In this document: piece after piece, positions 11,939 through 42,066 of the stretch | Layout: each line of letters starts with the position of its first letter | Position numbering within the stretch: the first letter of the stretch is position 1 | Sequence record: MH675927.1 | Direction: 5' to 3' (one strand) | DNA from: Escherichia phage vB_vPM_PD114 | DNA: 64,000 nucleotides | Position numbers and translations under genes: made by a program | The notes under the pieces: model-generated | Seen by the model: only the letters and a program-made list of their open reading frames with translations | Told to the model about the DNA's origin: nothing | The model's database searches: none

Positions 11939-14900
11939 TCAGTGACAAGTTGACCATGAACTACCAACATCGTAACCAGCAGTTAGAGGTACATTAAGAT
12001 TGTAATACTCACCAGCTTTATTAACAGCGATAGATGCTAATTCTCCAGCACGACTGTAGGCTGTAAACCAACCACCTTTCGGAGATTCATGTACGTTAGC
12101 CCAAATCTTGCCAGTACGTTTCTCTTCCTCTTCTTTCCAGGTATTAACTTTATCCAAACATTCTTTATCAATTTTCTTTTGTTCTTCTGGATCATCAACT
12201 TGAGTCCAACCTAAAGATTCTTTAGAGAACCATTTAAAATGCACGAGATCACGAGTTACTTCAAGCTGTGCTTCATCGTGATATGCAATCATTTGTTGAA
12301 CGAATGACTTATTTTTCCAGTCATCAACAAAAAAGTCAACAGCTAATCCTTCTTCTTCGATAAGATCGTCGTAGATAACCATTGCTCTTTTTGCACAAAT
12401 AACACCACCACTCTGGAACAGAGAGTTAAGTATTGCGTGTGCAGATCGTGTAGGTACTTTCCTACCATCAATACCAAGAATGTATTTCTTACCTGTTTTA
12501 ACCCAAAAATCATGCAGACGTTCTTTAAGAAGTGCAAGAGGTTTTGCAGCTTCCCAGAAAGCATCGTATACAAGCTGTCCTGTATACATATCACTACCAA
12601 TAGTTTTTGCTACTTTTGCAGCTTGAGCACCATAAGTAATACCATACTTAACAGATTTAGCAGGGCTTCGTTCAAACTTACGACCAATAGTGTCAGAAAT
12701 ACGTCGAGCCATCATTGTATGAACATCATTAGGTTTTTCCAACAATAGAGCATTACAATATTCGTGTGGTTCCTGCTCGTACCGCCAACAATTCCCTGTA
12801 ATCGTGATGCAGTCTTTCTGACGCATAACCCATGTACCGAGTTCTGTTTGTGGACACCAAACATCTTCTACACCCCATTCTTCAATAGTCAGACTTTGAA
12901 CAGGGATGTGAGAGCGGTTAGCCAACGTTGCCACTTTTACTTTCTGGTCTTTCGTATTGAAGGCTACAGAAATATTACCCCCATGAACCAGGTATGAGGC
13001 AGTTAAGGCTGCTTCAAAAAGTTCTCCTGGGTTCTGCGCCCAGCGCCAAACAGGTTTTTGTTTATGTTTGTGCCAGTAACCATCCGCAATCAAAAAACCT
13101 TCCAAGAAAGCCACACGCTCGGCATGAGACATATTAACTACACGTTCTACCCACGGAACATCCCATTTACCTTGTTGAACAGAAGTTAAACTATTTACTT
13201 GATCTTGTTCCATGTTAAATGGAGCATTACAAATAATGTTATCTCCTGTGCAAAGCTCGGCAGTTGTTCTGACTTTAGGCACATAAGTATTCCCTGTACT
13301 ACGAGTATTAACATACCAACGGTGATCTGCTGTTGCACGATAAGTATGGGATTTTCCTTTAATCTCAAACGTCTTACTATTTTTATAGAAGACCTTACCT
13401 TTTACTTTAGTCCATTCTTTAAGTCCTGTTTCTGGGTTATATCCTAAGATTTCATCCCCTTCTTGTAGATCGTGATAACCAACCCAACCTTTACGGGTTA
13501 GTGCTTGTGCATCCATAGGTACACAGTAATGTGATTCTATTTTTGCCTCAAGAGAATCAAAGTCATAACCAATTTGGAAGTATTTTGGAACTTCTACACC
13601 AAATAAGTTACGCATTTCATATCCGTACAGAGATGTTACACGTGGGATGTTTGCTACTAACCTATGTTTCATACGAGACGTAGCTGCATCGCACGTTGCA
13701 GCAGGGGTTGGTATACGACCATCAGCCCTTACTGCCGCCAGATAACCTTTATCGTAATCCTCTTCATCCTCTTCCCAATCAGCGCCACCCCCTAGAATAG
13801 AGTTCCTACGATGTTTATACGTAAGATACTGCACAATCTGCGTAGCATAAGGAAACTTTTCACCTAGTGCTTCCAAGTTAGGACAAATATCCTTCTCTTG
13901 CCCTTTTGTAAAGGAAGGGTTAGTAAGCACTTTAACACCACGGCCTTTAGCTTTAGCAATACGATCTCTTAGTTTCCATTCCAAAGTTTCTGGTGTGCAC
14001 TCCAGATGATCACATCTATCCTGGCAGAAGTTAGATGCTAACGTTTGATCAACATAGTCACGAATAGCTTTCTCCATTTGTGCTTCATCTTTCTTAATCT
14101 TAGTGCCAGATTTAAGAGTGATATCTTTATCTTTATATTCAGATGGACTCCAACCTAAACCAACTAACCAATTTTTAATATGTGTAGTGTCGTCTAAAGT
14201 AGCAGGTACTGTAGGATCACAAATAGGTTCTTCTGCTGGAATAGGTAGTTTAAACTCCTTACCTAATGCAAATAACCACCAACCATCTTCTTTTTGTACA
14301 AGTTCACCAGAATGTTTCTCTGCAAACTTTATCATGTTACTTGAAGGTTCACCATTCTTTTTAAACTGTAGTTTAGGTGGAATGAATGATTTCAAATAAC
14401 CTTTAGTAGCAGGTTTAGGAGGTAGTACAGGTTCTGCCTCTAAACGACATGCTTCCATTCGAGCATCCAGATCACGAATATTATCTTCTGCTTGTTTCAT
14501 ATTGAAAGCAAAGCCACGGTGCTCTTGACGTGTAATAATATCAGCTACACGTTGTTCTAAGTTAAATGGTTCAGACCACTTATTATAATCACCCCACTCT
14601 TCCATCAAATAACGGAACACTGCGGTGTTAGCTTTGTTATCGTAAATACAGTAATACAGCATATCTGCTGCAAATGTTCTAAATCTTTCAGTTTCAGGGA
14701 TGTTTTTTCTAAAATCAATTTTAACATCCCCTCCAGCTTTCTTAGATAACTCTGCCAGACTATGACCACCGAAGCGATCAGGGTTTAGTGTCTTACTTAA
14801 GATCATAGTATCACAAATTTCAATGTTACTATTACCCCAAGTATTGTACTTAATACTGTAGTTGAGTTTAAAAAATAATTTAATTGCCAGTAAGTCGAAG

Positions 14901-15253
14901 TTAATGATGTTGTGTCCAACTACTTTGGTAATTTTATAGTTTGAATTACCTTTAAATTTACCTGTTCCATTTACAAAATCAGGAAAATCTTTAAGAGGGA
15001 AATGGGTATATTCTAAATGCTCATATTCCTCCAGTCGGTATTCATACTTTCCGTCAGTCTCAATATACGGACGACCATCGAAAAGATATTTATCACCATC
15101 ATGGAAAGCAATAATCTCTCCAGTATCATGACTTTCGCACACAATACAGTGCATTGCAAAACTATCTTTTAAACGATATGGACTTGCCAAGTAATCTACA
15201 CTTTCGTCATTAAGCAAGTTGTTACTTTCAATGTCGAAAGTAAAAGCTCCCAT
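11939..15253 (-). CDS. DNA polymerase, family A (T7 gp5-like), with 3-prime-5-prime exonuclease domain; contains an intein
   Basis: N-terminal exo motifs (FDIES, HCIVCESHD, GGHSLAEL) and C-terminal motifs (KSVKYGITYG, GIDGRKVPTRSAHAILNSLFQSGGVICAK, AYHDEAQLEV) colinear with T7-type polymerases; RBS AGGAGGGAGA. Confidence 0.9.
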   Translation of the reverse strand: MGAFTFDIESNNLLNDESVDYLASPYRLKDSFAMHCIVCESHDTGEIIAFHDGDKYLFDGRPYIETDGKYEYRLEEYEHLEYTHFPLKDFPDFVNGTGKFKGNSNYKITKVVGHNIINFDLLAIKLFFKLNYSIKYNTWGNSNIEICDTMILSKTLNPDRFGGHSLAELSKKAGGDVKIDFRKNIPETERFRTFAADMLYYCIYDNKANTAVFRYLMEEWGDYNKWSEPFNLEQRVADIITRQEHRGFAFNMKQAEDNIRDLDARMEACRLEAEPVLPPKPATKGYLKSFIPPKLQFKKNGEPSSNMIKFAEKHSGELVQKEDGWWLFALGKEFKLPIPAEEPICDPTVPATLDDTTHIKNWLVGLGWSPSEYKDKDITLKSGTKIKKDEAQMEKAIRDYVDQTLASNFCQDRCDHLECTPETLEWKLRDRIAKAKGRGVKVLTNPSFTKGQEKDICPNLEALGEKFPYATQIVQYLTYKHRRNSILGGGADWEEDEEDYDKGYLAAVRADGRIPTPAATCDAATSRMKHRLVANIPRVTSLYGYEMRNLFGVEVPKYFQIGYDFDSLEAKIESHYCVPMDAQALTRKGWVGYHDLQEGDEILGYNPETGLKEWTKVKGKVFYKNSKTFEIKGKSHTYRATADHRWYVNTRSTGNTYVPKVRTTAELCTGDNIICNAPFNMEQDQVNSLTSVQQGKWDVPWVERVVNMSHAERVAFLEGFLIADGYWHKHKQKPVWRWAQNPGELFEAALTASYLVHGGNISVAFNTKDQKVKVATLANRSHIPVQSLTIEEWGVEDVWCPQTELGTWVMRQKDCITITGNCWRYEQEPHEYCNALLLEKPNDVHTMMARRISDTIGRKFERSPAKSVKYGITYGAQAAKVAKTIGSDMYTGQLVYDAFWEAAKPLALLKERLHDFWVKTGKKYILGIDGRKVPTRSAHAILNSLFQSGGVICAKRAMVIYDDLIEEEGLAVDFFVDDWKNKSFVQQMIAYHDEAQLEVTRDLVHFKWFSKESLGWTQVDDPEEQKKIDKECLDKVNTWKEEEEKRTGKIWANVHESPKGGWFTAYSRAGELASIAVNKAGEYYNLNVPLTAGYDVGSSWSTCH
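12791..13525 (-). mobile_element. intein inserted after polymerase motif A (about 245 codons, LAGLIDADG-type endonuclease motif)
   Basis: In-frame block CVPMDAQALT...ITITGN followed by Cys; contains VAFLEGFLIADGYW; flanking extein ...LEAKIESHY|CWRYEQEPHEY... is contiguous relative to T7-type polymerases; terminal dipeptide is GN rather than HN. Confidence 0.7.
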
Positions 15254-33931: not shown

Positions 33932-34402
33932 TTAGTCAGATTCCCAAATGTTGTCTTTCTTAACCCACATTCGTTGATTATCTGAACCTCTATAACGTTT
34001 CGTTGTTGGTTGATTCATATCATACTTACCATCTATCACTATGTCAACCAGTTTTTTAATTTTCTCTGGAATTTCTTCAAAAAGATATCCTGTATATAAG
34101 ACAATATCTTTTTTGTTTCCAAAACAATCTCTTACCTTCTCAAGAACATACTCTACAGTGTCAATGTTCTCTTTGTCAAGAGGTTCACCACCTAAAACTG
34201 TTAATCCTTTAATGAAAGGTCGAGATAAATCTTCCAAGATAAGATCTAATGTTTCAGCAGTGAACTCTTGTCCGTAATTATACGACCAGGCTTTCTGGTT
34301 AAAGCAGCCACGGCAACCGTGGCTACAACCGCTCACCCACAAAGAGCATCTTACACCGTCACCGTTGAGCATGTCAACAGGTTCATATCCGGCGTAATTC
34401 AA
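33932..34402 (-). CDS. nrdG: anaerobic ribonucleotide reductase activating protein NrdG (radical SAM)
   Basis: MNYAGYEPVDMLNGDGVRCSLWVSGCSHGCRGCFNQ follows the NrdG N-terminus including the CxxxCxxC radical-SAM cluster; TTG start; 4-nt overlap with nrdD stop. Confidence 0.85.
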   Translation of the reverse strand: MNYAGYEPVDMLNGDGVRCSLWVSGCSHGCRGCFNQKAWSYNYGQEFTAETLDLILEDLSRPFIKGLTVLGGEPLDKENIDTVEYVLEKVRDCFGNKKDIVLYTGYLFEEIPEKIKKLVDIVIDGKYDMNQPTTKRYRGSDNQRMWVKKDNIWESD

Positions 34403-35340
34403 AAATGTTTCTCCCTTTCTAGTACCTCTTGCATTTTACCTTTATTATAAGGGCGAGAGTTAGGAGCAGAAAGGTATCCTGACACTCTTCTGATCACAGA
34501 TATGGATTCTTCTTCATGATTACCGCAACTTGGACACTCGAAGCCTTTAGCCGTTGCTTTAAACTCACCATGAAAACCACATTTGAAACACTGATCTACA
34601 GGTTGGTTCACGCCAAAATAAGGAATTTTGTTGTAGGCATAATCTACAAGAGTTTCCAGTGCTTGCAAGTTATTTTTAAGGTTTGGTGTTTCTACATAAC
34701 CTATGTTCCCACCGTTACTAATTTGTGCAAAACCTTCCTCATAATCCCACTTTTGGAACGGGGTAGTGTGCATCCATACAGGTTGATGGAAAGAGTTTGT
34801 CAAGTAGTCACGATCAATAGAACCAGGATAGCGATCATTTAATGCTTTGGCAAATTTATAGCACAAGGATTCTGCTGGTGTTCCATACAAACTAAAAGCT
34901 AAACCAGAACGTTCTTTAAATGTGCCACAGATATCCTTCATATATTGAAGGATGTTTTTACCCATTGCTTTTGGATTGGTGTTACCTGGGTATAAAATCT
35001 CCATAGCTTCTGCTAAACCTACATAACCGATACTAATAGAGGCATAACCACCTTCGAATAGTTTACCAATCTCTTCATTAGCTTCTAGTCGAGCTAAAGC
35101 CCCTTCCATAAACAATGTAGGGTTTTGAGATGCTTTGGTATGTCTAATACGGTTAACACGTAGCATATGTGCCTTATACGCCATCTCCATATGTTGTTCC
35201 AACAGTTCAGTAAATAAGATGCCCTTTTCACGGGACTCTGCTGCAATGATAGGTAAGTTTAAAGAAACTACGCCTAAGTTGAAACGACCATCATATTTTT
35301 CACCTTGCTCTGTTGCATAGTATGACAAGAAACTTCTACA
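34399..35340 (-). CDS. nrdD: anaerobic ribonucleotide reductase NrdD, exon 2
   Basis: C-terminal zinc ribbon CFKCGFHG...CPSCG and glycyl-radical motif RRVSGYL; exon starts TGT AGA (CRSFLSYY) right after the predicted 3-prime splice site. Confidence 0.8.
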   Translation of the reverse strand, partial: CRSFLSYYATEQGEKYDGRFNLGVVSLNLPIIAAESREKGILFTELLEQHMEMAYKAHMLRVNRIRHTKASQNPTLFMEGALARLEANEEIGKLFEGGYASISIGYVGLAEAMEILYPGNTNPKAMGKNILQYMKDICGTFKERSGLAFSLYGTPAESLCYKFAKALNDRYPGSIDRDYLTNSFHQPVWMHTTPFQKWDYEEGFAQISNGGNIGYVETPNLKNNLQALETLVDYAYNKIPYFGVNQPVDQCFKCGFHGEFKATAKGFECPSCGNHEEESISVIRRVSGYLSAPNSRPYNKGKMQEVLEREKHF

Positions 35341-35619
35341 CATTATGTTCAAAGTGGCTCGCAAGGCCACTCCCGCACCATTACGTGCTGCTGCATGTCA
35401 CCATGCAGATCAGACTATATCTTCATGCTTAAAGCATGTCTACCATTTGGGGTGTCATAGGCTTACACCCTACGCTGCTACATTCATCACAGCTAGTCGT
35501 TAGGCATTTCGTAATAGTACCCCCTTCTTCTGTGTTGGGAGTTCTGTTACGTTTAGCACGGGATTGTCTCGTTGAGAGTTCCCCCGTTTAGGCAGATTTT
35601 ACATGAGCAGTTATAGTTT
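35341..35619 (-). ncRNA. group I self-splicing intron (td-like, no internal ORF) interrupting nrdD
   Basis: 279 nt between the two nrdD reading frames; core-like TAAACGGGGGAACTCTCAACGAGACAATCCCGTGCTAAAC and P7 3-prime element AAGATATAGTC; CTGCATG-GTGA-CATGCAG hairpin near the 3-prime end; ends GAACATAATG; exon 1 ends ...ATGGGT. Confidence 0.75.
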
Positions 35620-36477
35620 ACCCATGCTTGTGACGCGACCATCTGAAGATCCTGTAACTTCTTTGTTTAAAGGTACAGAGATAAAATCAGGATAAATGCG
35701 TTCAGCACAACACTCCATTGCCAGTTGCTTCAAATCATAGTTTGGATCGCCAGCTTTCATGTTAACACCATCTTCCAAGAAGAAGATAACTTTAGGAAAC
35801 ACAGGAGTTACCCTATCTTTTCCTAATCCTTGTTTGTGCACCATTAGGTAGTTTTTAGTGATCATTCTACCAAAAGCAGAGGTATCCAAACCTAAACTAA
35901 TTGTTATAAAAGGTGACTGACCATTTACACTCATTAGAGTGTTCACCTGGTAGATTAAAGTTTGCATTGCATCATAGACCTGTTTATCTACCATACGCAT
36001 AGCAATATCATAATCGCCAACATCGGCATATATTTTATTAAAACTTGCTTTAACGTATTGACTAAGCCCAGTATCAACATGTGCACAAGTTTGTCCACCA
36101 TATTGGCTAGAGGCTACTGCTTGAATAATTTGAGTTAGGACAGTAGTTGCTACACCGATAGATTTTGGTTTTTCAATATGTGCATTACCAATACGGAAAC
36201 CGTTCTCAAGCATATCTTGGTAATTTACCAGGCAACAATTAGTTAGAGGTGAGAGTAAATAATCTAAATCGTGAATGTGACCATACCCGCTTTTATGCCA
36301 TTCTGCCAGATCTTCCGGTAAAATATGGGTCATTGCCATGTGCTTGCTCAGAATACCTGCTAGTAAGTCTCGGTGAGTATTAACAATCATTGCAGGTTTG
36401 TTTGCATTTTCACGAGTAAATTCTTCGGATGTTTGTTCGAGGAATCCGATTACATCCTCATATAGTTTTTGGGTCAT
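35620..36477 (-). CDS. nrdD: anaerobic ribonucleotide reductase NrdD, exon 1
   Basis: Start ATG 36477 (RBS GGAGG); reading frame stops 9 nt into the intron; splicing predicted to join ...RVTSMG to CRSFLSYY..., giving a 599-aa product. Confidence 0.8.
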
Positions 36478-36494
36478 TAATCCTCCGTGGAAAA

Positions 36495-36520
36495 TAAAAG
36501 CCAGCATTAAGCTGGCTTTA
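36495..36520 (-). terminator. rho-independent terminator
   Basis: AAAGCCAGC-TTAATG-CTGGCTTT hairpin followed on the minus strand by TATTTTCC; between 36567-37517 and nrdD. Confidence 0.5.
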
Positions 36521-37534: not shown

Positions 37535-37969
37535 TTAGTTTAAAATTTCTTTTGCAATGGTAGAAGCAAGTTTTCCATCATATTGATTCGGATACTCTGC
37601 TTTAAGGTGTTTCATCATATCTGGCATTTTCTTGCCTGTCAAGGCAAATTCTTCAGCAATAGCTCGAAGATCATCTTCAGATAGCATTTCTGGCAAATAT
37701 TTTTCCAGAGTGGTGATATCACGCATAGCTCGCTCACATTTGCTAATGGAGGCATTAACTTTCTTAAGTGAGTCTAGTTCCTCTTTAGCGTGTGCAATAC
37801 CAATCTTAACAATGTTAATCATAATATCGTCTTCTGATTTGTTTAGATTTGCCTTTTGAGTACGAGCAAGGTCAAACTCACCAATAATATTAGTTAACAA
37901 AGCAAAAGCACCCTTATCGGTTGTACGTGCTAAGATACGATCTGCTTTCATTTGTGTCACAATAGACAT
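37535..37969 (-). CDS. GatB/YqeY-domain protein
   Basis: Pattern ...LEKYLPEMLSEDDLRAIAEEFALTGKKMPDMMKHLKAEYPNQYDGKLASTIAKEIL matches the YqeY/GatB C-terminal domain (YLPxxLSEEEL...MGxVMKxLK...GRADGKxVS). Confidence 0.55.
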   Translation of the reverse strand: MSIVTQMKADRILARTTDKGAFALLTNIIGEFDLARTQKANLNKSEDDIMINIVKIGIAHAKEELDSLKKVNASISKCERAMRDITTLEKYLPEMLSEDDLRAIAEEFALTGKKMPDMMKHLKAEYPNQYDGKLASTIAKEILN

Positions 37970-37981
37970 TCTATTCTCCTC

Positions 37982-38554
37982 TTATTTGCTAATGCTTTGA
38001 ATGTTATTTACAACACGGTTTATTGCCAGTGAAGCCCTAGGCTCCGCAATACCTGTTGCATAGATATAAGGATGACCTTTTGGAGACTCCCTCATACCGA
38101 ATGAACCTAATTCTAAACCATATTCATCCTCTACGTCAACCCCAATATTAGTGGGTACTAAATATGTTTTAACTCCATAATAAGTAGAGAAGAAACAGCG
38201 CATAGCGTTAGCATACTCTTCAATTGTAGCATCAGGGTAGAACTCAATCAACTCCAATTTCAAGAAAATATTAAAATGGGTATCATCTAAATTTTCTTCT
38301 GTACGGTAACATGGCGTTAGTGCCATATACGGATTACCTGCTGCAAATTCAAAACCATCCTTCTCCATTTGCAGGAAAGATTGTTCTGCACTAGCTACAT
38401 AGTATTTACCGTTAGGATGCCCTAATGGGCGATCCTCTTTATTTTCTGGTAGTGTGTACGCCAGTATATCAGCATCCACGAGATATGGAACTTCTAACAT
38501 TTGTGCAAATCGACCATAGTAATCAATAGCTTGAGCTATTACTGCAACATTCAT
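37982..38554 (-). CDS. hypothetical protein; weak class II aminoacyl-tRNA-synthetase-like core resemblance (tentative)
   Basis: Possible motif-2-like TPCYRTEEN...FNIFLKLELIEF and motif-3-like ATGIAEPRASLAI; too short for a full synthetase; start ATG coupled to upstream stop (ATGA). Confidence 0.3.
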   Translation of the reverse strand: MNVAVIAQAIDYYGRFAQMLEVPYLVDADILAYTLPENKEDRPLGHPNGKYYVASAEQSFLQMEKDGFEFAAGNPYMALTPCYRTEENLDDTHFNIFLKLELIEFYPDATIEEYANAMRCFFSTYYGVKTYLVPTNIGVDVEDEYGLELGSFGMRESPKGHPYIYATGIAEPRASLAINRVVNNIQSISK

Positions 38555-38813: not shown

Positions 38814-41588
38814 TTAGTTTACCAGTTTATTTATGTCTGGTAAAAGATTTATTTCACCTAAGAAATCACCTTCACCTTCCTCTAGCCAACTCTCATATGC
38901 TTGTGCATGATTATAGTTACCATCAAAAGAATCTGCAACAAATTTTTCTACAGTTTTTCGAGATGTGCCAGCGCCAAATACACCAAGTTTAATACCATTG
39001 ATCGGTAAAGTGGTGCTTGTGGGTACTTTCTCTGTTGCAACACGGTTGATATCTATAATCTCCTGTACGGTTGTGTTCCATTGTAAGCATTTAACACAAC
39101 GGGTATGCGCTACATACAGTAGGTTTCGCTCTGCCTCTTCTAGTCCTACCCACTCACCAGTCTTTTTATCATAGTTGGAAGGAAAATCATTAGCAACAAT
39201 AACCTGATCCCACTCCAAACCTTTAGACTTGTGTGCTGTAGTCAATGTGACTTTTGCTGTAGGAGAATTTCTATGCGTTCTAAGTGTATGTGCTATAGTG
39301 TTTGCCTTACCAGAAACTACAATGTTTAACAAGCGTTTAGCATCTGGATCAGCCTCTGCACACTCAACAAATTCATTCCAGTCTGCGTAAGGTAATACAG
39401 TTTCATGTTTTACTTTCTCAATATCTCCTCTCCGAAGAGCATTAACACTATCTACCATAGAGATAAAATCCCTGGTATCTACGTTAATAATAATTTCTTC
39501 CCCATCTGCAATACGATCCATTGCCTCCATAAGCAAGGTTAAATTCTTGCGAAAGATGATAGTGTAAGGTTTTGTATAGTCTACAACATCTGATTTGTAG
39601 CTACCTACTACAGTATCAAAGCCTTTACCAACCAAAGGATGACGCAAAGGTTCTTTATCACTTAAAATCATATTTGCAATGTTTGCCACTTTGGGGCCAA
39701 AACGGAAGCAAGCAGTTAATGGAAGCTCTGCCCCATACTTAGCTGTTTCAATCATCATATTAGAGCTACCTCTAAATTGATAAATGCAGTTGTGGCTAAG
39801 AATTTCATTGCCAAAAAAGTTAGCAGTATCTTCTACTTCAATATCATAATAGATACCCTCACTATCTACAATGTCCACTATCTCTTCTGCCGTTACAGTA
39901 TCACCATCTTTTACTAACACAGACATGCCTTTAAACAAACCCGCTGCCGGAATTAAATTATATTTGGCAGTGTTCACAGAGGACATGCATTCTTTTAAAG
40001 ATGCAAACGGAACTATTTCAAGGATCTTTTGTGCAAAACTCAATGCTTCACGATAAGAATTGAAATATTTACGTACACGGTAACGACCTTCCAATTTAGC
40101 AACACTTACGCTTACACCTGCTTCAATGAGTGAGGCATAGATTGGCATTTCACTTTCTGTCCACTCAAAGCTAACTTGTGTTCCTTTACAACCTTGTGCT
40201 CGCAAAGTCACTGTTAACATTTTTCTTGCATCTACTGCACAATTGATGCTGTGCCAATGTGGATAAGCAAAATGATAGTCTTTATCCTCTAAAAGTTTAA
40301 AACCATTTTGTCCGAATTGTTCAAAGATATTGTTGATCCTTTCTTGATTAATACCGCGTGAACTTGCTTCAAATACACAAGTAGGAATGCCATATTGTAA
40401 ACTGTATGCCATTTCTTTTTCCATAGCAGCTTCACGGTTTTCAACAATATCCAACACCCACAACTTCTGTGCTTTTTCAGAACGTGTACGTTGCCCCAGT
40501 TTAGAAAAACCTTCTTTATCATCGAATTTGTTAGTGATCCCTACTCGGAAACCTAAATCTTTTCTCCACATTAGGTATACCACCATCTGATCATCTTTCA
40601 GAACATAAGGTGAAGCCCAAATACGATGGTTATGTGTCATATCTAAAGTCTTACCTTTAGCAGTAATAATATTCCTACCTTTTGTACGTGTAGATAAAGT
40701 CTTATTTGTTACTTTTCTAAATGTAACTTTACCGTTAGAATAAGACTCTACCTTATCACCGATTTGCAGGTCTTTCATTGTAACCTGACCATTTTCGGTA
40801 TTAAGTACCGTGTTTTCTGACACACATTGGAATTCATCACCAACTACCACAATTTGTTTGGCAGATTTAGCATTCCGCAGAATAGACAAGAATGCAGGGT
40901 TAACATCCTGGAATTCATCCCCAAAAATAATGTCATAACCAAGATCAGCACCAGACAATTCAAACAATTTTACATAGGTGTCATGCGTCATCAAAGTATC
41001 TGTGTTAGGGTCAATGCGCTCTCGCCACAATTGTTTTGCATACTTAACTACTTCTGTAATTAGTTTGTGTTCGTTAATACCTTTTCTTTTAATATCTGCA
41101 AGATGTACACTAGGAAAATGTTTACGGCTGATAAAAGGATCATCCGAAAATTCAAACTTACCTACGGTTTGCTTGATCATTAAACCAATCATAGCACGAG
41201 TTAAAAGTGTTTTCCCTCGTTTATCAATAAGATTATTAATCTTAAATTTCTTTGCTATCTCACTACCTGTACCTGCAACGTTAACATACTGTCCTTCTGG
41301 TCGTGACAGTTTTGCACGTAAACGATGATCCAGGAATTGATAGCAAATGGAATGCAATGTACGGCATTCTACATTTGGTGGCATCTTACGCCGTGCTTCT
41401 TCTGCCATGCTTTTATTGAAAGCTAAGTAAAGAATGCGATCTTCTGTACTGTTAGCCAGCAAATAAAGTGTTGACGTTTTTCCTGATCCAGATTTAGCTT
41501 GGATAGTTAAAAACCGATGATCTGGAAAAGCCTCCTTAATAGCTGTTTGCTCTTCTGTTGGAGTAAAACTCAACTCTTTCTTAGCCAT
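38814..41588 (-). CDS. UvrD/PcrA-like superfamily 1 DNA helicase; contains an intein
   Basis: Walker A AKSGSGKTS, motif II IIFGDEFQD, motif III VVVGDEFQ|...|CIYQFRGSS split by the intein; start at ATG 41588 (RBS AGAGAGG). Confidence 0.85.
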   Translation of the reverse strand: MAKKELSFTPTEEQTAIKEAFPDHRFLTIQAKSGSGKTSTLYLLANSTEDRILYLAFNKSMAEEARRKMPPNVECRTLHSICYQFLDHRLRAKLSRPEGQYVNVAGTGSEIAKKFKINNLIDKRGKTLLTRAMIGLMIKQTVGKFEFSDDPFISRKHFPSVHLADIKRKGINEHKLITEVVKYAKQLWRERIDPNTDTLMTHDTYVKLFELSGADLGYDIIFGDEFQDVNPAFLSILRNAKSAKQIVVVGDEFQCVSENTVLNTENGQVTMKDLQIGDKVESYSNGKVTFRKVTNKTLSTRTKGRNIITAKGKTLDMTHNHRIWASPYVLKDDQMVVYLMWRKDLGFRVGITNKFDDKEGFSKLGQRTRSEKAQKLWVLDIVENREAAMEKEMAYSLQYGIPTCVFEASSRGINQERINNIFEQFGQNGFKLLEDKDYHFAYPHWHSINCAVDARKMLTVTLRAQGCKGTQVSFEWTESEMPIYASLIEAGVSVSVAKLEGRYRVRKYFNSYREALSFAQKILEIVPFASLKECMSSVNTAKYNLIPAAGLFKGMSVLVKDGDTVTAEEIVDIVDSEGIYYDIEVEDTANFFGNEILSHNCIYQFRGSSNMMIETAKYGAELPLTACFRFGPKVANIANMILSDKEPLRHPLVGKGFDTVVGSYKSDVVDYTKPYTIIFRKNLTLLMEAMDRIADGEEIIINVDTRDFISMVDSVNALRRGDIEKVKHETVLPYADWNEFVECAEADPDAKRLLNIVVSGKANTIAHTLRTHRNSPTAKVTLTTAHKSKGLEWDQVIVANDFPSNYDKKTGEWVGLEEAERNLLYVAHTRCVKCLQWNTTVQEIIDINRVATEKVPTSTTLPINGIKLGVFGAGTSRKTVEKFVADSFDGNYNHAQAYESWLEEGEGDFLGEINLLPDINKLVN
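39789..40826 (-). mobile_element. intein in helicase motif III (346 codons)
   Basis: Starts CVSENTVLNTENGQVTMKDLQIGDKV (canonical intein N-terminal block), ends FFGNEILSHN followed by Cys; removal restores VVVGDEFQ-CIYQFRGSS. Confidence 0.75.
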
Positions 41589-41589
41589 T

Positions 41590-42066
41590 TCAACCTCTCT
41601 TAATTTGTTTAACAAGCATAGGAACAAAATCTCGTTTTAAAATTTGTTCAATAATATGATCAGGTAGCTGTTGGAAATTATAATTAAACGCTACTGTCTC
41701 ACCTTTAGGTGTTTCTACCCGCACATATAGCATGTTACGAAGTTTATCCACTTGTGCTGTATATTCTAAACCACGTAATTGATGCATTGCAAACATCAAA
41801 TCCTCAGTTTCAGTTTGGAATCTATCCCTTGTTTGCATCAAGGATAAGGCAAAAGGTAGATTTTCCCTAAGAGCCACCTTCTTAGGCACTAATGAAGGGA
41901 AATACTCCCCAATAACTTCCTGTGTAAGCTGAATACACTCTTTTTCAAGCTGGTTTTGTTCCTTGAGTTCACAAACACTTTTTTGTAAAGTGTTAACCTC
42001 TTTTTGCAAAGCTGCTAGTTGAGCACTTAACTTTCTTTTTTGATTACGACCAAAACGTTTAGACAT
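41590..42066 (-). CDS. hypothetical coiled-coil protein
   Basis: 158-aa ORF. Confidence 0.4.
   Translation of the reverse strand: MSKRFGRNQKRKLSAQLAALQKEVNTLQKSVCELKEQNQLEKECIQLTQEVIGEYFPSLVPKKVALRENLPFALSLMQTRDRFQTETEDLMFAMHQLRGLEYTAQVDKLRNMLYVRVETPKGETVAFNYNFQQLPDHIIEQILKRDFVPMLVKQIKRG

Follow-up and report, generated by a model that had tools for sequence, protein, structure and literature searches.

The UvrD/Rep-type helicase gene of Escherichia phage vB_vPM_PD114 is interrupted in-frame by a class-1 intein, which sits between the Gln and the Ser/Cys of helicase motif III (VGDxxQ | [S/C]IYxFRG). The gene lies on the minus strand of the 64,000-nt stretch of sequence record MH675927.1 that we analyzed (hereafter the window; Table 1). 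Taking all the evidence together, the likely explanation is a class-1 splicing intein with a homing endonuclease of the GIY-YIG type. The intein itself is not new, being already annotated in sister phages. At the same site of the same gene, the BASEL phages JohannJBalmer (MZ501084) and PaulScherrer (MZ501100) carry an intein of the same length and 98–99% nucleotide identity. Their GenBank entries read ‘intein-containing UvrD / Rep family helicase precursor’ with a mat_peptide ‘intein’, drawn 3 nt (one codon) longer than ours so as to take in the +1 Cys. The corresponding paper (Maffei et al. 2021, PMC8594841) states that inteins were identified by comparative annotation and says no more; neither the records nor this paper gives the endonuclease class or the mobility of the intein. 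As an intein it is ordinary, and its chief value is correct annotation, because most of the 37 intein-bearing records that we found give the product just as ‘DNA helicase’ or ‘hypothetical protein’. The interest lies in the endonuclease module, which is widespread in phage helicase inteins, and in its free-standing derivatives.

A first-pass annotation of the window had placed a 346-codon intein with textbook termini at 39789–40826, and both its position and its ends proved exact on the minus strand. The translation reads CVSENTVLNTENGQVTMKDLQIGDKV...FFGNEILSHN, opening at Cys1 with CVSENTVLNTENGQ..., and is flanked by ...IVVVGDEFQ and CIYQFRGSS..., the codon directly after the intein (39786–39788) being Cys. 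Translated on the plus strand, the same interval is riddled with stops. The sequence VGDxxQSIYxFRG constitutes motif III in UvrD/Rep-type superfamily 1 (SF1) helicases. All residues expected of class 1 are in place: Cys1, T64-x-x-H67 in block B (here T64-H65-N66-H67), the block F Asp, His345-Asn346 and Cys+1, with blocks F and G together running YYDIEVEDTANFFGNEILSHN | C. To count invariant residues, we used 69 sequences that are 24–50% identical to the window intein, plus one near-identical phi92-type copy. Among the 69, the splicing residues C1, H67 and N346 were invariant, and H345 nearly so.

The profile search that the first-pass annotation had suggested as a check came out in favor of an intein, with two profiles above and two just below their curated cut-offs. 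Pfam Intein_splicing (PF14890) matched the intein alone with an E-value of 2.7e-8 over residues 8–346, skipping the middle. Hint (PF01079) matched residues 4–73 of the isolated intein above its cut-off (30.3 versus 29.7 bits), as did TIGR01443 (intein_Cterm) residues 327–346, with 23.3 bits in the precursor and 20.0 bits in the intein alone (cut-off 15.6). These profile matches were confined to the two ends of the intein. An AlphaFold model built from the 69-sequence alignment showed the Hint fold of a class-1 intein with high confidence (pLDDT 93.9, pTM 0.90) and superposed with a TM-score of 0.98 on the BFVD prediction for this protein (A0A140G655); a model from a three-sequence alignment was poor (pLDDT 46). 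When the whole model was compared with the PDB using Foldseek, only Hint and intein entries were returned, at low TM-scores, which was uninformative for the insert. We conclude that the intein is not a chance resemblance, because the profile matches coincide with intein-less alleles that are shorter by exactly its 1038 nt (see below). It is probably both self-splicing and mobile.

The helicase gene is up to 99.5% identical to those of phi92-like coliphages (genus Justusliebigvirus, Stephanstirmvirinae). The 937-aa product named in the first-pass annotation exists as a mechanical open reading frame (ORF; 38814–41627, minus strand, 937 codons) that begins at a TTG at 41627, 13 codons upstream of the ATG at 41588. 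The ATG is the start in annotated relatives (the same coding sequence in MZ501084 and NC_023693), and the real precursor is probably the 924-aa protein that begins there. It comprises a 578-aa spliced helicase and the 346-aa intein, and matches Pfam UvrD-helicase, UvrD_C and AAA_19 as well as PHROG 1967 (DNA helicase, E 5.8e-163). The UvrD-helicase match ends exactly at the junction of N-extein and intein, and the predicted junction peptide of the ligated helicase is ...VVVGDEFQCIYQFR....

Natural alleles with and without the intein allowed us to define its borders. The helicase gene matched 121 phage records, 55 of them at ≥95% identity, and 37 of these 55 had ≥80% query coverage and hence bear the intein. 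Among the records listed, those with partial coverage (62%) consisted of two matching pieces totalling 1776 nt, which is 2814 minus 1038. In alia, KKE7M and ESCO8, the allele is shorter by precisely 1038 nt (1776 versus 2814 nt) and contains the uninterrupted motif VVVGDEYQ|SIYQFRGS. In a base-level alignment to phage alia (NC_052655; VVVGDEYQ|SIYQFRGSQ), the gap corresponded exactly to the 1038 intein bases, and the DNA at the intein-less junction of the alia/ESCO8 allele reads ...GTAGTGGTGGGTGACGAATATCAG|AGCATCTACCAGTTCCGTGGAAGC.... More distant helicases of the Phapecoctavirus type (∼75% identity) also lack the insert. Within records named Justusliebigvirus alia, the intein is present in some and absent in others.

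The presence of the intein was linked to the sequence of its flanks. Of 51 differences between plus and minus alleles, 25 fell within 90 nt at the junction and the remaining 26 were spread over 1686 nt (Fisher P = 1e-20), the clustered ones occupying gene positions 775–801 and 1840–1890. Four plus alleles (window, JohannJBalmer, phi92 and A150) had one flank haplotype in common, its upstream part being the same in all four save two synonymous sites in phi92 and A150, and the three minus alleles (alia, KKE7M and ESCO8) had another. By its sequence pattern, the linked haplotype looks like co-conversion during homing from a diverged donor. Inside the intein, comparison with three relatives gave synonymous to non-synonymous codon changes of 18:4, 28:5 and 30:9, none of the substitutions falling on an invariant residue. 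The intein is under purifying selection.

The first-pass annotation had called the intein canonical, which is right for the Hint splicing part alone. The ∼220-residue insert between its halves (about residues 74–297), whose class that annotation had rightly not fixed, is neither LAGLIDADG nor HNH. No family in Pfam, NCBIfam or PHROG matched the insert. Structure prediction, also proposed earlier as a way to classify the endonuclease domain, gave a partial answer: residues 74–158 adopt a GIY-YIG-like β-β-α-β-α arrangement in the model, and residues 159–297, which had no consistent match in Pfam or the PDB, could not be placed. We presume that the latter α/β subdomain, which is confidently modeled, binds DNA.

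In the predicted model, residues 81–145 follow the order β1-β2-α1-β3-α2 (strands 81–88 and 92–98, helix 111–116, strand 121–128, helix 131–145), and β-β-α-β-α is the core fold described for GIY-YIG nucleases (PMC1564403). Eight insert residues were invariant in the 69 sequences: Y84, G92, R94, G96, R113, E117, W123 and E138. Of these, Y84 (V-V-Y-L-M, β1) occupies the position of the GIY Tyr and is paired by hhalign with that residue in phage homing endonucleases; G96 occupies that of the YIG Gly on β2. R113, with E117 at i+4, lies on the helix that matches the one with the α1 Arg, which in I-TevI also has an i+4 partner (R27/H31), and E138 lies on the helix that matches the one with the metal-binding α2 Glu.

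Sequence comparisons pointed in the same direction. Scanned one by one, 10 of 47 copies of the subdomain matched Pfam GIY-YIG (PF01541; best E 0.0088) and one matched the URI-fold toxin family, with no other Pfam family matched by more than two; the same scan of the adjacent subdomain, which served as a control, returned scattered noise only. We further aligned the subdomain with hhalign to 16 phage GIY-YIG domains, themselves aligned from tblastn matches in phage genomes. The score of 20.6 (P 0.003) exceeded all 200 column shuffles (mean 10.1, SD 2.2, maximum 18.3), the reversed query (12.3) and the adjacent subdomain (11.6), and the Tyr strand, the Gly strand and the Glu helix (E138) were all aligned in the correct register. 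Against a profile of three GIY-YIG sequences, the match was not significant (E 0.13), and searches of the insert subdomain profiles against PHROGs and NCBIfam yielded nothing usable. Each of these signals is weak; since taken together they agree, we read the insert with fair confidence as a divergent GIY-YIG-like nuclease plus an α/β domain of unassigned fold.

We also considered other endonuclease types. A LAGLIDADG enzyme was rejected since no profile matched, the topology was wrong and LAGLIDADG inteins aligned via their Hint parts alone. An HNH enzyme was rejected in view of the missing HNH profile match and the lack of His, Asn or Cys among the invariant insert residues. An out-of-frame or antisense endonuclease, as found in some actinophage inteins, seems unlikely: only three ORFs of 61–77 aa overlap the intein in other frames or on the other strand, and the in-frame insert is conserved and well folded.

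The module turned out to be widespread. A word-indexed protein search with the intein returned two relatives only, as did a similar search seeded with a phage GIY-YIG domain (two matches); it was an exhaustive search of representatives that revealed the family. Among 1.84 billion cluster representatives, the insert profile matched 1243 proteins at E ≤ 1e-3, of which 101 reached E ≤ 1e-30. Of the best 150 of these 1243, 108 carry the insert within an intein at the same motif III site ([VI]GDxxQ | C...HN | [SC]IYxFRG). These 108 were extracted with a pattern permitting Cys, Ser or Ala at position 1, and all had Cys; 95 ended in HN, and the +1 residue was Ser in 84, Cys in 22 and Thr in two. The hosts that we checked were UvrD-type helicases, with no Pfam family over the insert in any of them. 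Viral contigs contained 24 loci with the module, several on contigs of 220–450 kb, and no relative turned up when 185,579 species genomes were scanned for two narrow peptide patterns taken from the module. Matches in BFVD to the whole architecture were limited to a helicase and a methyltransferase (TM about 0.6).

Inteins with another N-terminal signature (CQP[AP]GT...) at the same motif also carry the module, and it was found at further sites. One helicase (L020, 2852–6685) has two module-bearing inteins, in motif III and at TIH|C...HN|SAKGLEW; another helicase is occupied at a different site (L026, 2831–5344), and a third locus has a module-bearing intein in a ParB-N6/N4 DNA methyltransferase (L027, 2744–4963). 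This suggests that module-bearing inteins have switched insertion site repeatedly. On a high-G+C metagenomic contig (L003, 6997–10107), the same intein was seen at the same site (MAVGDDQQ|CVSVDT...ILSHN|SIYGWRGS); the helicase gene there is split into four ORFs by frame changes, reflecting either an assembly error or a decaying copy.

Eight short proteins (265–366 aa) aligned with the intein. Seven of them begin with Met, and Cys1, the block B His and the terminal His-Asn are missing from all eight. They retain VYLMYR, GFRVG, R, E, W and E, isolated substitutions aside. In the three contexts examined, the short genes lie directly upstream (P0002) or directly downstream (P0045 and P0055) of intact UvrD helicase genes encoding 478–499 aa. 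Free-standing homing endonuclease genes of phages, such as the seg and mob genes of T4, typically adjoin their target gene, and for this reason the short proteins look like intein-derived free-standing endonucleases, by analogy with yeast HO. They indicate that selection may retain endonuclease activity, and not splicing, in these copies, perhaps with the Hint scaffold kept as a DNA-binding element. It is possible, and we propose it tentatively, that the phi92-type intein belongs to a large, mainly phage-borne and unrecognized family of inteins with divergent GIY-YIG endonucleases that has colonized several helicase sites and a DNA methyltransferase and has repeatedly left splicing-dead ‘ex-inteins’ beside UvrD genes. 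In phage-like contigs, the free-standing genes at L004 (8001–8798), L044 (3340–4392), L045 (4001–5002) and L046 (2087–3088), of 265–350 aa, clearly descend from this intein type: Met stands in place of Cys1, the block B His and the terminal His-Asn are gone, and all GIY-like invariant residues are kept. Each directly adjoins an uninterrupted UvrD-type helicase gene.

Several points weigh against a splicing intein with a GIY-YIG homing endonuclease, most of them concerning the insert. Its second signature Tyr (YIG) is invariably replaced by Arg94 (F-R-V-G), no equivalent of the conserved GIY-YIG Asn was identified in it, and its structure is a predicted model. All PF01541 matches were far under the gathering threshold, hhalign gave a probability of 10% for the GIY-YIG match, and no PDB sequence was matched by profiles of the insert subdomains. 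The central 220 residues of a splicing intein could instead be an endonuclease of an unrecognized fold or type, or could have no catalytic role and serve to bind DNA or as a structural insert, the resemblance to GIY-YIG being convergent or spurious. We consider this unlikely, given that four independent weak signals agree on one superfamily while the control subdomain gives none, and that invariant Tyr, Gly, Arg and Glu follow one another as in GIY-YIG enzymes and lie on the corresponding secondary-structure elements. Against a passive insert, charged and aromatic residues are strictly kept at 24–50% identity and even in the splicing-dead free-standing copies, which points to catalysis.

The flank haplotype, too, can be read in other ways: it could reflect co-adaptation of extein and intein instead of ongoing homing, or one ancient entry of the intein, after which it descended vertically and was at times precisely lost. 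In the latter case, the intein would be a splicing-competent but immobile relic, inherited vertically in Justusliebigvirus, with minus alleles arising by precise deletion or by recombination with intein-free relatives. One invasion does predict the single haplotype seen across all plus alleles examined. We nevertheless regard an immobile relic as quite improbable: a decaying endonuclease would gather changes or deletions on its way to a mini-intein, whereas the endonuclease-like residues here are under strong purifying selection with mostly synonymous substitutions, and plus and minus alleles occur inside one named species. The minus alleles moreover have a consistent flank haplotype of their own, which argues against their being simple deletions of the plus allele, as precise deletion would leave plus flanks. 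Finally, that the 346 residues do not splice at all, being a permanent insertion domain of the helicase or part of a pseudogene, is scarcely credible, even though two profiles fell just short of their curated cut-offs (PF14890 with 34.2 versus 35.8 bits, 1.6 short; TIGR01445 over residues 1–69 with 21.7 versus 24.5 bits, 2.8 short).

For the preferred reading, a class-1 intein with a GIY-YIG-type homing endonuclease, we infer splicing, nuclease activity, target site and ongoing homing along the following lines. Translation would yield the 924-aa precursor, in which the Hint domain would run the standard four-step splicing reaction. This would excise the 346-aa intein and join the exteins into a 578-aa helicase whose motif III is whole again. 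Either the free intein or the precursor would then act as the homing endonuclease, with a catalytic module of the GIY-YIG type using Tyr84, Arg94, Arg113, Glu117 and Glu138. The α/β subdomain, and probably also the Hint domain, would position this module. In a mixed infection, the enzyme would cut helicase alleles that lack the intein, in their uninterrupted motif III region. Recombinational repair of the cut allele would then bring in the intein along with flanking sequence, about 27 nt from upstream and 51 nt from downstream.

UvrD is a known bacterial intein host, with 16 UvrD helicase inteins listed by Novikova et al. (2016, PMC4760082); like the intein in the window, these lie in P-loop/helicase motifs of UvrD-type SF1 helicases. 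The insert resembles the phage GIY-YIG enzymes I-TevI and SegA-G in its (predicted) topology and its Tyr...Gly...Arg...Glu constellation, in its modular architecture, where a small nuclease domain is linked to distinct DNA-binding parts, and in its phage setting. As with phage GIY-YIG homing endonucleases, free-standing relatives are found beside the presumed target gene. It differs from known GIY-YIG enzymes in the Arg that stands for the second Tyr, in a long variable loop leading from the ‘YIG’ strand to the Arg helix, in having no NUMOD or zinc-finger DNA-binding modules, and in a similarity below family thresholds. Unlike the insert, known GIY-YIG homing endonucleases are intron-encoded or free-standing, and GIY-YIG enzymes have been stated not to be found in inteins (Dunin-Horkawicz et al. 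2006, PMC1564403).

The LAGLIDADG intein enzyme PI-SceI and its splicing-dead free-standing derivative, yeast HO, likewise combine Hint with an endonuclease between blocks B and F, and in both the Hint part is known to assist DNA binding. As in HO, the free-standing descendants described here keep the Hint scaffold and have lost the splicing residues. In the non-canonical inteins of actinophages (Gosselin, Arsenault and Gogarten 2025, bioRxiv 10.1101/2025.01.02.630785), too, the endonuclease is something other than an in-frame LAGLIDADG enzyme; for these, the authors propose that inteins were invaded by free-standing endonuclease genes. Their preprint names GIY-YIG in a passing list with old citations only and does not mention UvrD as a host protein. 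A search of the full-text literature for intein or Hint together with GIY-YIG, with most subscription journals outside its coverage, returned no description of a GIY-YIG intein. A GIY-YIG-like intein endonuclease is probably undescribed.

If the GIY-YIG assignment is true, it would close the one gap left when homing-endonuclease families are set against self-splicing hosts, GIY-YIG being the only classical homing-endonuclease superfamily stated to be absent from inteins. The insert would also make available a sequence-tolerant, monomeric nuclease of compact size in fusion with a splicing domain, possibly of use for intein-controlled nucleases, and, along with the splicing-dead copies by helicase genes, it would provide a series for studying how endonuclease genes join inteins and separate from them. 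If the reading of the family is true as well, it would document movement between intein-borne and free-standing lifestyles, the free-standing copies being a phage counterpart of yeast HO. The system is tractable, since it is a coliphage on E. coli K-12 with natural intein-plus and intein-minus partners in culture collections.

Table 1. Coordinates in the window of the helicase precursor, the parts of its intein and the linked flanks
Feature	Position	Strand	Remarks
UvrD/Rep-type helicase precursor, coding sequence	38814..41588	−	924 aa from the ATG (probable start), stop included
N-extein, 254 aa	40827..41588	−	Ends in the first half of motif III, ...VVVGDEFQ
C-extein, 324 aa + stop	38814..39788	−	Starts with the +1 Cys and the second half of motif III, CIYQFRGSS
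Intein, 346 codons	39789..40826	−	Cys1 to His345-Asn346; exactly what intein-less alleles lack
Hint N-terminal part, intein residues 1–73	40608..40826	−	Block A Cys1, block B T64-x-x-H67; β strands predicted, pLDDT 96–98
GIY-YIG-like putative nuclease subdomain, intein residues 74–158	40353..40607	−	VVYLMWRKDLGFRVGIT...R113xxxE117...W123...E138
Two-helix linker and α/β subdomain of unassigned fold, intein residues 159–297	39936..40352	−	Confident model
Hint C-terminal part, intein residues 298–346	39789..39935	−	Block F YYDIEVEDTANFFGN, block G EILSHN; TIGR01443 above cut-off
Upstream flank haplotype linked to the intein (co-conversion-like tract)	40827..40853	−	9 differences in 27 nt versus intein-less alleles
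Downstream flank haplotype linked to the intein	39738..39788	−	16 differences in 51 nt; includes Ser-to-Cys at +1

The first-pass annotation had counted three self-splicing elements in the window, and the other two were recovered as well, as a group I intron in nrdD and an intein-like insert in the DNA polymerase gene. The intron (35391–35665, minus strand) matched the full-length Rfam model RF00028 with 72.5 bits (E 8e-18) and splits the gene for the anaerobic ribonucleotide reductase into halves at 34399–35370 and 35611–36507. It is too small for an endonuclease ORF, and the nrdD gene of JohannJBalmer is uninterrupted. The DNA polymerase ORF (11939–15253) contains a 245-codon in-frame insert (12791–13525, minus strand; CVPMDAQALT...CITITGN | C), which is exactly what is missing from the 859-aa polymerase of JohannJBalmer. 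This insert has a single LAGLIDADG-like motif (FLEGFLIADGYW), ends in Gly-Asn, not His-Asn, and had no Hint profile match at E ≤ 0.001. A second intein is the probable explanation. Two small ORFs closely downstream of the helicase gene (37535–38554, minus strand) encode products of 190 and 144 aa. Related records name this pair putative tRNA synthetase and tRNA amidotransferase-like, with annotations varying by record, and both products are unusually short for these names.

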